Shown here: one piece after another, positions 12,283 through 17,609 of the stretch
How the letters are laid out: every line of letters begins with the position of its first letter
Position numbering within the stretch: position 1 is the first letter of the stretch
DNA from: an uncultured Planctomycetia bacterium
GTDB taxonomy: Bacteria > Omnitrophota > Gorgyraeia > Duberdicusellales > 4484-171
Direction: 5' to 3'
Assembly (NCBI GenBank): GCA_964536865.1
Contig: CAZHYN010000010.1
Location: 1 to 32,000, forward strand
Length of the DNA stretch: 32,000 nt
Made by a program: the position numbers and the translations under genes
The notes under the pieces: generated by a model
Told to the model about the DNA's origin: nothing
The model's input: the letters and a program-made list of their open reading frames with translations, nothing else
Databases searched by the model: none

Positions 12283-12311
12283 TTGACAAAATTTTGGTTT
12301 TATGTTATATA
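12283..12311 (+). promoter_or_regulatory. Promoter of the MerR-like gene (TTGACA-17 nt-TATATA)
   Basis: TTGACA at 12283-12288 and TATATA at 12306-12311. ATG 12321 follows 9 nt later. Confidence 0.55.
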
Positions 12312-12320
12312 AAAATCGGA

Positions 12321-12626
12321 ATGAAGAGAGAGAAAAGAGAATACCCAAGTTGGGAAGAGTTAGAAGAGTTATTAGACATAGAAATCCCTGAGGATGAGCC
12401 TCTTTATCCTTTGAATATTGTTTGTAAGCTTTTGAAAATGCATTCTTGGACAGTTAATGAGGTCATTAGAGAAGGTCTTATAAAGCCCAAGAAAGTAGGG
12501 AAAAGAAAGAAACTTTTCTCTTACCAGGATATAAAACGTCTTAAATATGTAAAGTATCTTATGGAGGTAAAGGGAGTGAATATTAAGGGAGTTAAAGTGA
12601 TCTTTGAGATAAGAAAAGAAATTTAA
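12321..12626 (+). CDS. MerR-family (HspR-like) transcriptional regulator
   Basis: The track start 12294 is a TTG inside the promoter, so ATG 12321 is preferred. The HTH 'YPLNIVCKLLKMHSWTVNEVIREGLIKPKK...LFSYQDIKRLKYVKYLM' and its position directly upstream of hsp20 support the call. Confidence 0.7.
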   Translation: MKREKREYPSWEELEELLDIEIPEDEPLYPLNIVCKLLKMHSWTVNEVIREGLIKPKKVGKRKKLFSYQDIKRLKYVKYLMEVKGVNIKGVKVIFEIRKEI

Positions 12627-12643
12627 TTTTTTTTCTTGTTTTC

Positions 12644-12670
12644 TTAGCAGATACGCTTAGGGAGTGCTAA
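12644..12670. promoter_or_regulatory. CIRCE-like inverted repeat upstream of hsp20 (TTAGCAgaT-N9-GAGTGCTAA)
   Basis: The right arm is perfect and the left arm matches 7/9 of the consensus TTAGCACTC-N9-GAGTGCTAA. Confidence 0.65.
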
Positions 12671-12702
12671 CTAAGGAAGCTAAAAAGAAGGGAGGTGAGA
12701 CT

Positions 12703-13146
12703 ATGAAGCTAGTAAGATACAGAAAGGATCCTTGGAAGGCTCTGGAGGATTTACAGAATGAGATTAACAGGTTATTTGATTTCTCCTTTGCTAAATTGCC
12801 TACCTTAAGAGAAGAGGTATTAGCACCCTCGGTAGATATCTATGAGGATAAAGATAACATCTATGTAGAGAGCGATCTCCCAGGATTTGAGCAGAAAGAT
12901 ATAAATATCTCTTTAAAGGGAAATACTCTCACTATTTCTGCCCAAAGAGAGGAGAAAAGAGAGGAGAAAAAGAGAGATTACTATCACTGTGAGCGTTTCC
13001 AAGGAAAGTTCTACAGAGAATTAGACTTGCCTACAACTGTGGAGACAGATAAAATAAAAGCTAATTACAAGAATGGAGTTCTAAAGATCACTCTTCCTAA
13101 GAAAGAGGAAGAGAAAGATAAGGAGATTAAGATCAATGTGGAATAG
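12703..13146 (+). CDS. Small heat-shock protein (Hsp20/alpha-crystallin family)
   Basis: ATG 12703 lies 7 nt after GGAGGTGA; the track start 12664 is a GTG inside the CIRCE arm. Alpha-crystallin core 'PSVDIYEDKDNIYVESDLPGF...RFQGKFYRELDLP......A.YKNGVLKITLPK'. Confidence 0.9.
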   Translation: MKLVRYRKDPWKALEDLQNEINRLFDFSFAKLPTLREEVLAPSVDIYEDKDNIYVESDLPGFEQKDINISLKGNTLTISAQREEKREEKKRDYYHCERFQGKFYRELDLPTTVETDKIKANYKNGVLKITLPKKEEEKDKEIKINVE

Positions 13147-13154
13147 AGAAGAAA

Positions 13155-13172
13155 CCTTAGTTAGCACTCCCT
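13155..13172. repeat. Right arm of an 18-nt perfect inverted repeat bracketing hsp20 (partner at 12659-12676)
   Basis: ccttagttagcactccct is the exact reverse complement of agggagtgctaactaagg (12659-12676). It contains a perfect CIRCE left half-site, TTAGCACTC (13161-13169), with no local right arm. Confidence 0.9.
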
Positions 13173-13193
13173 GGTTAAGATTAAGGAGAGAGA

Positions 13194-13853
13194 ATGATAC
13201 CTTTAAGAGATGACATTCCTCATATAAGAAAACCTGTGGTAACTATAATAATACTAATTATCAATATCTGTGTTTATCTTTATGAGCTCTTTTTAGGTAG
13301 AGGTTTAGATAGTTTTGTTTTTAATTACGGTTTCATTCCTTATAAACTCATTATGCCTTTAAGTCTCCATGCGAAATTAATTCCTTTATTTACCAGTATG
13401 TTTATGCATGCAGGATTTTTGCACCTTTTAGGTAATTCTCTCTACCTTTGGATTTTTGCTGATAACGTGGAGGATAGATTAGGTCATTTTAATTTTCTAA
13501 TTTTCTATCTTTTGTGTGGAATTTCTGCAAGCTTAATTCATGCTCTTTTTAATTGGGGTTCTAAAGTTCCTGCTGTAGGAGCTTCAGGTGCTATCGCAGG
13601 AATTTTAGGAGCATACTTTCTAATGTTTCCTAGGGCTAGAGTATTAACTTTGGTACCTTTATTTCTGTTTTGGGAAATAGTGGAAATTCCTGCGTTCTTC
13701 TTCTTAGGGTTCTGGTTTTTATACCAGTTCTTATTAGGACTGGTTTCTTTAGGAAGGATGGGCGCAGGTATTGCCTTTTGGGCTCACATTGGTGGATTTC
13801 TTAGCGGAGTAGTTTTCTTAAGATTTTTTCTTAGGAGAAGAACTTACTGGTAA
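13194..13853 (+). CDS. Rhomboid-family intramembrane serine protease
   Basis: Polytopic membrane protein with 'HAGFLHLLGN', catalytic 'GASGAIAG' and 'AHIGGFLSG'. Confidence 0.85.
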   Translation: MIPLRDDIPHIRKPVVTIIILIINICVYLYELFLGRGLDSFVFNYGFIPYKLIMPLSLHAKLIPLFTSMFMHAGFLHLLGNSLYLWIFADNVEDRLGHFNFLIFYLLCGISASLIHALFNWGSKVPAVGASGAIAGILGAYFLMFPRARVLTLVPLFLFWEIVEIPAFFFLGFWFLYQFLLGLVSLGRMGAGIAFWAHIGGFLSGVVFLRFFLRRRTYW

Positions 13854-13879: not shown

Positions 13880-16468
13880 ATGAACTTAGATAATTTTACT
13901 CTACGAGCACAGGAAGCAATAAATAACTCGGTAAGTTTAGCAACTAAACTTAAGCATCAAAGTCTTTTGCCCGAACATCTCCTCTACTCCTTGCTGGATA
14001 CTCCTCAAGGAGTTGCTATGGAGATTTTATCCCATTTAGGATTAGATATAGGAGAACTAAAGGTTAAAGTTCAGGAGTTTTTAGATAATCAACCTAAGGT
14101 GTTAGGTACTACATCAGGAGTTTATGCCTCATCTCGTTTTACTCAGGTAATTAATGAAGCTAAAGATTTCTCTAAAGATTTAGGAGATACCTTTATAAGT
14201 AGTGAACATTTACTTTTAGGAATAGCCAAAGATAGAGAAGGGTGGTTGTTTAGGTATCTGAATCAGCAAGGAATTACTTTGGACGATCTTGTTCGAGCAA
14301 TTAAGGAAATAAGAGGAGTTAGCTCTGCTCAGTCACCCGATGCTGAGGCTACCTACCGAGCTTTAGAGAAATTTGGAAGGGATCTGACTGAACTGGCAAA
14401 AAAAGGAAAACTAGATCCAGTGATCGGCAGAGACGAGGAGATTAGAAGAGTAATTCAAGTACTTTCACGAAGAACAAAAAATAACCCTGTTTTAATTGGT
14501 GAACCAGGAGTAGGTAAGACTGCTATTGTAGAAGGATTAGCTCAAAGAATTGCCTTAGGAGATGTTCCTGAAGGGCTTAAAGAGAAAAAAATTATAGCTT
14601 TGGATTTAGGGAGCTTGGTAGCAGGAACAAAGTTTCGAGGAGAGTTCGAAGAACGCCTTAAGGCAGTATTAAAAGAAATAGAAGCTAAGGAAGGTCAGAT
14701 TGTTCTCTTTATCGATGAGTTACATACCTTAGTAGGAGCAGGGGAAGCTCAAGGTGCTATTGATGCCTCCAATATGTTCAAACCTGCTTTAGCTCGGGGA
14801 ATTCTAAGATGTATTGGAGCTACAACTTTGGATGAATACAGAAATCATATCGAGAAGGATGCTGCTTTAGAGAGAAGATTTCAACCTGTACTAGTCAGTG
14901 AACCTACGGTAGAGCAGACAATCGCCATTTTGAGAGGTTTAAAAGAGAAATACGAAGTTCATCACGGTATTAGATTAGCAGATTCAGCACTGATTGCTGC
15001 TAGCCAACTTTCCCACCGTTATATTACCGGAAGGTATCTACCCGATAAGGCTATTGACCTTGTCGATGAGGCTGCTTCTAAATTACGGATAGAGATTGAC
15101 TCTAAGCCTGAAGAGATAGATAAGTTGGAGAGAAAGAAGATGGAGTTAGAGATTCAAAGGGAGGCTTTAAAGAAGGAGAAAGATTCTGCATCATTAGAGA
15201 GGTTAGAGAAGTTAAAGAAGGAAATAGAGAATTTAAACAAAGAACTAGAAGTTTTAAAACAGCACTGGCAAAAGGAGAAGGAGTTAATTACTAGTATCAG
15301 AAGGATAAAAGAGGAGATTGAGAAGTTAAAAATTGAATCTATTGAGTATCAAAAACAGGCTCAATTAGATAAAGTAGCTCAGATAAGGTATGGTAAGATT
15401 CCCCAACTTAACCATGAGTTAGAGGGATTAAATAAAAAGTTAGGTGAGCTCCAGAAAACAAAAAAAATGCTTAAGGAAGAGGTAGATGAGGAAGACATCG
15501 CTGAGATTGTCTCTAAGTGGACAGGCATTCCTGTAGCTAGATTAATGGAAGGAGAGGTAGAGAAACTTTTGAAGATGGAGAAAGAGCTAAAAAAACGTGT
15601 GGTAGGTCAAGATGAAGCAATAAGACTTATATCTGACTGTATAAGAAGAGCACGCTCAGGGTTAGCCGATCCTAATAGACCTTTAGGATCTTTTCTTTTC
15701 TTAGGACCTACAGGAGTAGGCAAAACTGAGCTGGCTAAAACCCTTGCCTGGTTTCTTTTTGACAGTGAATATAATCTTATAAGAATAGATATGAGCGAGT
15801 ATATGGAGAAGTTTTCTGTTTCCCGCCTGATCGGTGCCCCTCCTGGGTATGTAGGATATCAAGAGGGAGGTCAGCTTACTGAGGCGGTGAGGCGCCGGCC
15901 TTATTCAGTAATTCTCTTCGATGAGATTGAAAAAGCTCACCCTGAGGTATTTAATCTACTTTTACAGGTTCTTGATGAAGGTCGTCTTACAGATTCTCAA
16001 GGCAGGGTTGTGAATTTTAAAAATACCGTTATAATAATGACTTCTAACATAGGTAGTGAGTATTTCAGTGACCCCACAGTTACTAAAAAGAGTATAGAGG
16101 AGAGGATAAAGGTTGAGCTTAAAAGATACTTTCGCCCTGAATTTTTAAATCGCTTAGATGAAATTATCATCTTTAATCGCCTTACCATAGAAAATATAAA
16201 GGATATCGTGGAGATTCAATTTGATACATTGAAGGAGAGATTGAAAGATAAAAAGATTGGAGTAGAGTTAACATCTCAAGCCAAGGAGTTTTTAGCAGAG
16301 AAAGGGTTTAGTCCACAGTATGGAGCAAGACCTATCAAAAGAACTATCCAGAAGTTAATTATAGATTCTTTGAGCAAAAAAATTTTAGAGGGAACATTTA
16401 AGGAAAATGACACAGTAATAGTAGATGTTAAAAATAGAGAGATAGTTTTTTCTAAAAAGGAGAGTTAG
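13880..16468 (+). CDS. clpB: ATP-dependent chaperone/disaggregase ClpB
   Basis: 862 aa with a Clp N-domain, two AAA+ modules ('[15 protein letters not shown]', '[15 protein letters not shown]') and a long coiled-coil middle domain between them. Confidence 0.95.
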
Positions 16469-16831: not shown

Positions 16832-16858
16832 TTAGCACTCAAGGTGATAGAGTGCTAA
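16832..16858. promoter_or_regulatory. Perfect CIRCE operator (TTAGCACTC-N9-GAGTGCTAA)
   Basis: Exact match to the HrcA operator consensus, 13 nt upstream of the hrcA ATG. Confidence 0.92.
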
Positions 16859-16871
16859 AAAGGAAGAGATA

Positions 16872-17609
16872 ATGAGGCATGTAGATATCCGAGAGAGAGA
16901 AAATCAGATTTTGGAGTTGGTGGTAAAAAGTTATATTAGAGAATCAAGACCTATAAGTTCCAGCTATCTTTGTGATAAGTTTAACCTTTCTTGCTCTACC
17001 GCTACGGTGAGAAATATTATGGAATCCTTAGAGAAAAAGGGTTTACTTTCTCATATTCATACTTCTTCAGGTAGAGTTCCTACTAAGGAAGGATTTAAAC
17101 ACTATATAGAGAATATAAGAGATGGGCTGTTAAAAAGAGGCGAACCATCCTTGGATGTGGATATCAATATGGCTCAGGATATTGAGGAAGTTTTTGATAA
17201 GGCTTTAGATATATTAGCTACTCTTACTAGATACATTTCTCTTATAGCGATTTCAGGATGGGAGGAAAGATTTCTCCTTCGGGGAGTAAGGTATATTTTT
17301 GATCAGCCAGAGTTTGAAGATATTAATAAGCTGAAAGCTCTCTTTTATGTTTTAGAAGTTAAAATAGGTGCCATTCAAGAGCTACTCTTTGGATATGTGG
17401 ATGAACAGTTTAAGGTATTGGTAGGGGATGAAATTGGATGTGAGGAGATTTCTGAATGCTCGTTAGTTATTTCTGGTTTTCATCAAAAGAAGATTTCTGC
17501 TAGTTTAGCTCTCCTTGGTCCAATGAGAATGGATTATGTAAGAGCAATTCCTACTCTTTATGCAGTGAGGAAAAAACTGGAGGAGTTTATAATAAGGAGG
17601 GATTTTTAA
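16872..17609 (+). CDS. hrcA: Heat-inducible transcription repressor HrcA (compact, 245 aa)
   Basis: N-terminal wHTH ('RERENQILELVVKSYIRESRPISSSYLCDKF...STATVRNIMESLEKKGLL') and C-terminal 'LLGPMRMDYVRAI' signature. CIRCE lies upstream and grpE-dnaK-dnaJ downstream. Confidence 0.85.
   Translation: MRHVDIRERENQILELVVKSYIRESRPISSSYLCDKFNLSCSTATVRNIMESLEKKGLLSHIHTSSGRVPTKEGFKHYIENIRDGLLKRGEPSLDVDINMAQDIEEVFDKALDILATLTRYISLIAISGWEERFLLRGVRYIFDQPEFEDINKLKALFYVLEVKIGAIQELLFGYVDEQFKVLVGDEIGCEEISECSLVISGFHQKKISASLALLGPMRMDYVRAIPTLYAVRKKLEEFIIRRDF

Follow-up and report, generated by a model that had tools for sequence, protein, structure and literature searches.

Our analysis indicates that the hsp20 gene of an Omnitrophota genome is enclosed by two complementary arms, one in its leader and one just past its stop codon, which very probably form an RNA helix that is maintained by selection. 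The window, by which we mean the whole stretch of 32,000 nt that was analysed, belongs to a MAG of Candidatus Omnitrophota (1.29 Mb, 94% complete). The 18-nt perfect inverted repeat around hsp20 that had been predicted from the DNA was found to be exact: AGGGAGTGCTAACTAAGG (12659-12676) is the reverse complement of CCTTAGTTAGCACTCCCT (13155-13172) over all 18 nt (100%), with a separation of 478 nt, and the 3' arm does start 9 nt past the hsp20 stop codon. Two flanking G.U pairs extend the repeat to a 20-bp duplex of -34.5 kcal/mol. Its 5' arm (12657..12676, forward strand) covers part of the spacer and the entire right half-site of a CIRCE-like element, followed by 6 nt past the half-site, and pairs with the 3' arm (13155..13174, forward strand) in the 47 nt that separate hsp20 from the next gene. 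The complementary segments bracket the start and the stop of hsp20 on the same strand, which is the geometry of a 5'UTR-3'UTR interaction.

The cistron inside the helix, hsp20, encodes 147 aa (12703..13146, forward strand; ATG at 12703, TAG at 13146; Pfam HSP20, 1.5e-26). The N-terminus of the protein, MKLVRYR, is common to the relatives, and the closest public Hsp20, from a Guaymas MAG, shows 97% identity. Directly upstream lies the gene of an HspR-like regulator of the MerR family (12321..12626, forward strand; Pfam MerR_1, 5.5e-09), for which HspR was the top NCBIfam match with 52.7 bits, under the cut-off of 105. The mechanical ORF of the regulator starts with a TTG at 12294, and the ATG at 12321 was taken as the start. 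The adjacency of regulator and hsp20 is kept in the relatives. Downstream, a rhomboid protease gene (13194..13853, forward strand; Pfam Rhomboid, 2.3e-33) begins 19 nt past the 3' arm, with the SD AAGGAGAG at 13183-13190, and is probably co-transcribed with hsp20. It is followed by clpB (13880..16468, forward strand), an 862-aa ORF that was named by eye from its translation and is part of the same heat-shock block. The co-directional order is hflX, HspR-like regulator, hsp20, rhomboid, clpB, hpf, a perfect CIRCE and hrcA-grpE-dnaK-dnaJ, where hrcA (16872-17609) stands behind the perfect CIRCE at 16832-16858.

Between the stop codon of the regulator and the CIRCE-like element, there is a T-tract with a TTG motif (12627..12643, forward strand), for which a promoter or UP-like role may be asked. 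Among 29 CIRCE-anchored loci, the T-tract motif has the consensus aAatTTTTTTg and is found 8-10 nt ahead of CIRCE. A consensus scan called no sigma-70-like promoter upstream of hsp20, and no consistent -10 element was found in the CIRCE-anchored alignment of the relatives' hsp20 upstream regions. Right after the 5' arm and inside the loop, an A-rich unpaired spacer with a strong SD follows (12677..12702, forward strand; SD GGAGGTGA at 12691-12698). Neither a terminator nor a promoter was called in the hsp20-rhomboid spacer of the window or between the arms.

It had been argued that an 18-nt perfect match at this distance cannot be a chance event. For the window this nearly holds, for a single genome taken alone it lacks rigour, and it is the comparative data that decide. 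We found seven perfect inverted repeats whose arms measure at least 18 nt, at a spacing of 100-3000 nt, in the 1.29-Mb genome, compared with 0, 0 and 1 in three Markov-2 shuffles. Scaled from the shuffles, about 0.01 such repeats are expected by chance per 32-kb window. The remaining six repeats are palindromic or belong to IS-like elements, whose repeats measure 92 nt and 55 nt, and no further copy of the arm with fewer than three mismatches is present in the genome, so that the arm pair is a feature of this single locus. Two other origins were tried and rejected. A general habit of bracketing genes is out, as the hsp20 pair is the sole gene-flanking inverted repeat of its class genome-wide, and an origin of the arms from REP, MITE or PATE elements is out, as the arm is single-copy.

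The strongest evidence comes from the relatives, in which the pairing is kept while the sequence is not. For this comparison, 93 non-redundant hsp20 loci from the relatives' genomes and from GTDB species genomes were used, and later 67 from metagenomes; the latter contained few close relatives and were informative only in L114, L116 and L177. In 18 of the 31 related loci, the leader at or adjoining the right CIRCE half pairs with a stretch located 1-30 nt past the stop codon, and two more arm-bearing loci were found in metagenomes, giving a total of 20. The arm helices of the relatives, in 17 loci beside that of the window, comprise 13-30 bp and range from -21 to -41 kcal/mol. About 15 mutually unrelated arm sequences occur among the arm-bearing loci, as can be seen from the 5' arms AAATTCCTCCTGCCAGCC in L007, GCCAGCCCGGGGCAGAA in L018, ATAGAAAGGTCGGCCATG in L022, GAAAGGGGGAAAGGGA in L024, AATTTAGATTAGACAGA in L025 and ACACTTAAGCCTTGCGGACAT in L033. 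Since pairing is maintained across these unrelated sequences, the two arms covary.

In a flank test, the best complementary stretch between positions -200..-1 and +1..+90 was determined with a strand-symmetric ungapped score, and the own pair of each locus was compared with 8556 non-cognate pairs. Among the loci with an upstream CIRCE (at most four mismatches), 17 of 30 reached the 99th percentile of the non-cognate pairs and 10 the 99.9th, while only 2 of the 63 loci without an upstream CIRCE reached the 99th. Loci from Verrucomicrobiota, Zixibacteria and other phyla gave no signal in this test. RNAduplex on long flanks and a gapped, wobble-weighted Smith-Waterman alignment were dropped as too permissive and replaced by the strand-symmetric ungapped scoring, because they built long T-rich spurious alignments.

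Nine loci could be anchored at the right CIRCE half. Their alignment leans towards structure because its 3' coordinates come from the pairing, a weakness of which the flank test is free; both sides change in 17 of its 24 pairs, the covariation count is 44 cells compared with 14.0±3.1 in shuffles (0/500), and the covariation score of 0.523 exceeds the 0.08-0.18 obtained after shifting the partner by 1-3 columns. The P values in this study are overstated, since the relatives are kin. Individual compensatory changes can be followed between L032 and L033 (GGACAC/GTGTCC versus GGACAT/ATGTCC), and two further ones between L007 and L008. Between the window and the same-genus locus L005, the 5' arm shows 0/22 and the 3' arm 0/18 changes, as compared with 19.6% of third-codon positions and 4/14 positions of the adjacent spacer. 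Just outside the 3' arm, four differing bases in L005 extend the helix to 22 bp. The comparison of orthologous hsp20 loci, which had been proposed as a check, thus shows at the level of sequence that pairing is kept, that the complementarity is under selection and that the arms covary.

The mismatches within the significant arms tell on which strand this selection would act. With strand-symmetric scoring, 17 of them are G.U-compatible on the sense strand, three on the antisense strand only, and five are transversions; L114 and L116 add three further mismatches of the sense type. The bias of 17:3 (one-sided binomial P ~0.001, which is indicative only, as the loci are kin) argues for pairing in RNA, and the substitution pattern shows selection to act on the sense-strand RNA. 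Moreover, the helix is part of the MFE fold in 18/18 loci (RNAs of 525-680 nt), with a pair probability of 0.7-1.0 at 37 and 60 °C. In Rfam, no family matched the region, the known thermometer families included. Taking covariation as a proxy, 5'UTR and 3'UTR would therefore pair at the RNA level. Of the meanings that the original prediction had offered, the long-range 5'-3' RNA duplex is the one that is strongly supported, namely by the kept complementarity, the sense-strand G.U pairs and the predicted MFE folds.

What such a helix could do depends on the nucleases of the host. No RNase III was found in this 94%-complete MAG with TIGR02191, PF14622 and PF00636 or by tblastn with the RNase III-domain ORF of a relative. 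Matches were obtained in 3 of 41 relatives (MAGs), as short catalytic-domain-only ORFs, one of them with an in-frame TAG. RNase J, RNase E/G and RNase R were also not found in the 94%-complete MAG. RNase Y is present (720 bits) and was found in 40 of 41 genomes, and PNPase is present in this genome. With regard to the RNA 3' of hsp20, the best local hairpin within 80 nt past the stop codon reaches -11.1 kcal/mol among the 18 arm-bearing loci, whereas local 3' hairpins of -17 to -35 kcal/mol, in several cases with a U-tract, are present in 6 of 16 arm-less loci (one-sided Mann-Whitney P = 0.001, with loci that are kin). Arms and local 3' hairpins thus appear to be complementary in their distribution.

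On the whole, these data are best explained by a long-range 5'/3' RNA helix that stabilises or delimits the hsp20 cistron, a reading that we consider reasonably likely; its functional part, the role in stability or as a boundary, is a tentative assignment. The hsp20 leader at or just past the right CIRCE half would pair with the spacer just past the stop codon, so that spacer, SD and ORF come to lie in a loop of about 480 nt. The helix may then act post-transcriptionally as a stability and boundary element, taking over at long range what a local 3' hairpin or terminator does in the arm-less relatives. It could block 3'-to-5' decay by PNPase that comes from the downstream rhomboid-clpB RNA and could shield the leader from RNase Y. 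As a result, the hsp20 mRNA would outlive the remainder of the transcript and have a lifetime of its own. A long perfect duplex would be tolerable here because the lineage appears to be without RNase III. A local hairpin would, however, protect equally well, and the stability model gives no reason for a partner 480 nt away. Moreover, the helix is dispensable, since 13 of the 31 related loci have no arms and the Hsp20 tree requires at least five gains or losses of them.

A wider version of this idea is rather doubtful. In a lineage without RNase III, the pairing of the ends could be a dedicated device for hsp20 expression: a single helix would terminate or delimit the transcript, guard it at either end and bring the stop codon to the RBS for re-initiation. 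This would be a functional analogue, in bacteria, of mRNA circularisation, kept by selection in three or more Omnitrophota families and perhaps with more than one origin (L116, L177).

It is unlikely that the arms are a split long-range intrinsic terminator or attenuator, in which the 3' arm, on emerging from RNA polymerase, pairs with the leader and, helped by a subsequent U-tract, ends transcription past hsp20 and so sets the read-through into rhomboid-clpB. Such a function would fit with the T-rich run directly past the 3' arm in about 10 of 18 arm-bearing loci (e.g. L006, L014, L018, L019 and L054) and with the ordinary terminators that the arm-less loci L012, L013 and L023 carry at the same place. 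However, the spacers are AT-rich in any case, and L005, L021, L022, L024 and L025 have no U-tract. The window has none either: its 3' arm is followed by the tail TTAAGATT, so that a stem with a subsequent U-tract is absent and no terminator was called. Folding across a 480-nt loop may also be too slow, and no terminator hairpin with a loop of this size is known to us. In addition, the next gene of the relatives begins 17-55 nt beyond the 3' arm, without a visible promoter.

We also regard it as improbable that the helix is a translational device, which would either place the stop codon beside the SD and favour re-initiation in a closed loop or sense temperature through the access of ribosomes. 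The positions of the arms are in line with this, since 16 of 18 loci have the end of the 5' arm 18-30 nt ahead of the ATG and the 3' arm begins 1-30 nt past the stop, so that the arms would abut the footprints of the initiating and the terminating ribosome. Some arms also contain SD-like or anti-SD-like runs (L007, L054, L177). But the predicted accessibility of SD and AUG hardly depends on the helix (0.51 for the intact helix, 0.48 after removal of the 3' arm, 0.45 when the arm is shuffled), and the 5' arms of L010 and L014 are 127 and 69 nt away from the ATG and yet adjoin CIRCE. An RNA thermometer of the ROSE or fourU kind, or another occlusion of the SD, was rejected in silico, given the unchanged SD accessibility, a helix that still forms at 60 °C and the lack of a match to known thermometer families in Rfam. 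For the downstream RBS, an effect shows as a weak trend only (0.53 versus 0.45), to which no weight was given.

A processing stem, cut in both arms by a double-strand-specific nuclease to release a monocistronic hsp20 RNA in the way RNase III acts on rRNA precursors, appears quite unlikely; it comes near to the processing switch of the original prediction. The length of the helices, 16-26 bp, and their mostly perfect pairing would suit RNase III. Furthermore, hsp20 of L032, L033 and L114 has neither its own CIRCE nor a visible promoter and should therefore lie inside a longer transcript. Against this stands the nuclease inventory: none of the three profiles nor tblastn revealed RNase III here, the same holds for 38 of 41 relatives, and the three matches are the short catalytic-domain ORFs mentioned above. 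RNase III-type cuts at the arms, for which end mapping had been suggested, are thus unlikely.

The overlap of the 5' arm with CIRCE had given rise to the idea of a DNA loop around hsp20, formed by HrcA that sits on the proximal CIRCE and touches the distal half-site as well; we consider this highly improbable. The proximal site (12644..12670, forward strand) reads TTAGCAGAT-N9-GAGTGCTAA and is a CIRCE-like HrcA operator with a degenerate left half. It matches 15/18 consensus positions, and its three mismatches are all on the left, in agreement with the description of the upstream arm as the right half of a local element with an imperfect left half. In relatives, the CIRCE at the same place has 0-2 mismatches. 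CIRCE-like sites occur three times in the whole genome, at hrcA, groES and hsp20. The upstream arm contains GAGTGCTAA and the downstream arm TTAGCACTC, and in favour of a loop, TTAGCACTC or a form with one mismatch is present in the distal arm of the window, L005, L006, L035, L011, L021 and L019. When the 5' arm overlaps the right CIRCE half, however, the distal arm necessarily holds a TTAGCACTC-like sequence. The distal site of the window consists of a left half only (13161-13169), with GATTAAGGA in the position of the right half, where 4/9 positions match, so that it does not form the operator TTAGCACTC-N9-GAGTGCTAA.

In the arm-bearing loci, 11 of 20 distal arms are without a CIRCE half-site, and three of these loci (L032, L033 and L114) have no CIRCE at all. 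These three have no T-tract either, and their 5' arm follows directly after the stop codon of the regulator. The conserved property is therefore the complementarity and not the HrcA half-sites. A loop held by HrcA would also leave the 9 nt that the arms match beyond the half-site and the RNA-type G.U bias unexplained. In all CIRCE-bearing loci, the 5' arm starts between about 25 nt before and 10 nt after the end of the right half, and its distance to the ATG in relatives varies from 18 to 127 nt. We conclude that the CIRCE overlap in the window is a by-product of the position of the 5' arm. In 9-10 lineages, including that of the window, the 5' arm overlaps the right CIRCE half and the predicted fold displaces the local CIRCE hairpin; in eight lineages the arm adjoins CIRCE, the distal arm has no half-site, and helix and CIRCE hairpin coexist. 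The proposed mutual exclusion of the two structures hence holds in about half of the lineages and is not conserved.

Very unlikely, too, is an hsp20 cassette that was once mobile or invertible and had the arms as its terminal inverted repeats, as are arms that persist as a functionless remnant of chance or duplication. In favour of this, a perfect inverted repeat flanks a single gene, and the genome does contain IS-like elements, whose inverted repeats measure 92 nt and 55 nt. However, order and orientation of regulator, hsp20 and rhomboid are kept in all loci, the arm is single-copy, hsp20 is the sole gene between the arms, with no recombinase or transposase between or beside them, and arms that differ among genera with pairing kept are predicted neither by mobility nor by chance.

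With respect to known systems, stabiliser hairpins and rRNA stems are stable duplexes at cistron boundaries through which part of a polycistronic RNA can acquire a lifetime of its own. Like rRNA processing stems, the hsp20 helix encloses a whole gene. Stabiliser hairpins differ in being local, and rRNA stems in their need for RNase III, which was not found in the hsp20 host. Ahead of a heat-shock gene, and in a genome with hrcA and a perfect CIRCE at the hrcA operon, the proximal element is a CIRCE-type operator, but the distal arm is not an operator.

Intramolecular pairing of 5' and 3' UTRs is a kind of regulation that is already known. In the hbs mRNA of B. subtilis, a 14-bp pairing between the UTRs limits the cleavage of the leader by RNase Y (Braun, Durand and Condon 2017, PMC5737220), and this pairing was reported not to be conserved among close relatives (review PMC7821165). 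The hsp20 case resembles it in that the gene is short and highly expressed, the host relies on RNase Y, and a helix of about 14-20 bp joins leader and 3' UTR of one mRNA. It differs by the pairing being kept with covariation across three families, by its intercistronic 3' arm, which in hbs lies beside a terminator, by a 5' arm on or next to an HrcA operator, and by being a computational case only. In icaR of S. aureus (Ruiz de los Mozos 2013, cited in PMC7821165), according to the summary in the same review, the pairing of the 3' UTR with the SD prevents translation and gives rise to a site for RNase III. Here, too, intramolecular pairing of 3' UTR and 5' UTR controls the fate of an mRNA, whereas the SD of hsp20 is predicted to stay free and RNase III was not found in its host.

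The bacterial 5'/3'-UTR pairings known from experiments (icaR, hbs, RNAIII) are few and have been reported as not conserved even in close relatives (PMC7821165), so that their generality is in doubt. The hsp20 helix is one pairing held by compensatory evolution over many genera around the same gene, and the covariation of its arms is evidence that is usually available only for structured non-coding RNAs. In full-text searches of the literature, we came across no earlier description of a feature of this type, be it at small heat-shock genes or in Omnitrophota. New are the enclosure of a cistron, the intercistronic location, the covariation across families and the position on an HrcA operator while the lineage shows no detectable RNase III. 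The helix is tied to an unusual nuclease set, in which RNase Y and PNPase were found and RNase III, RNase J and RNase E/G were not. With two arms and one gene of 147 codons, it offers a short testable model for a cistron-enclosing helix. The case also calls for caution, as CIRCE half-sites away from promoters need not be HrcA sites.

The arms are distributed over three families of one order, with at least 12 genera, and were also seen in the distant Omnitrophota or metagenome loci L054, L116 and possibly L177. In the Hsp20 tree, which is short and poorly resolved, the order of the gains and losses of arms cannot be read. The ORF directly past the 3' arm of L116 reads ClpB-like by eye. In L177, a clear promoter, TTGACA-17-TATATT, puts the predicted +1 where the 5' arm begins, which hints that the helix can include the very 5' end of the RNA.

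The CIRCE-like element of hsp20 (12644-12670), the presumed operator of HrcA, has two unequal halves. Across the clade its left half (12644-12652 in the window) is systematically imperfect, reading TTAGCAGTC in nine loci and carrying GAT, GAC or GAA variants in some others. In the groES CIRCE of the source genome, the imperfection is likewise confined to the left half (TTAGCAAAC). Judged from these sequences, the asymmetry looks conserved rather than a product of decay. A further conserved motif, aAaTTTTTTTG (12627-12643), lies 8-10 nt 5' of the CIRCE and immediately past the HspR-like gene's stop codon, and it recurs at this position in 29 related loci. It may act as an UP-like or -35 element; no consistent -10 was found downstream of it in the window or in these 29 loci.

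The hrcA gene of the window (16872-17609) encodes a product of only 245 aa. Two stretches of the protein match TIGR00331, the better one (residues 8-125) scoring 161.6 bits, which is below the cut-off of 197 bits. HrcA usually has 340 aa, and here its middle portion appears to be absent. Despite its short product, hrcA is preceded by a perfect CIRCE.

Four Omnitrophota hsp20 loci (L046, L058, L065 and L075) have a CIRCE, and long-range arms were found in none of the four. Here the next ORF follows hsp20 within ~10-80 nt and, judged by eye, appears to be a second hsp20; two of the loci, L046 and L058, have a textbook sigma-70 promoter upstream as well. A more distant hsp20 without CIRCE, locus L177 on the metagenome contig Ga0209635_10020376, is preceded by a clear TTGACA-17-TATATT promoter. 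Its purine-rich 5' arm starts at the predicted +1 of this promoter and is imperfectly complementary, with a 16-nt core, to a stretch immediately past the hsp20 stop codon. L177 may represent an independent instance of pairing between the 5' end and the 3' end.

Among the nucleases looked for in the whole source genome, which is 94% complete, there was no match for RNase III, RNase J, RNase E/G or RNase R. RNase Y (contig C1, 41075-42613) and PNPase (contig C2, 27782-29830) were found, both outside the window, and RNase Y was also detected in 40 of the 41 relatives. An RNase III domain was detected in only three of the 41, each time as a short ORF comprising the catalytic domain only. One of these matches (L113; genome G011, contig C91, 7318-7710) may be a pseudogene, since it contains a TAG in frame. 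The hsp20 locus of the same genome, L010, bears long-range arms. mRNA decay in this Omnitrophota order may depend on RNase Y and PNPase alone.

Outside the window, the source genome contains perfect inverted repeats of 92 nt (contig C4, 84439-84530 and 86543-86634) and 55 nt (contig C21, 8879-8933 and 11824-11878). With arms spaced ~2-3 kb apart, these repeats probably form the termini of insertion-sequence-like elements.
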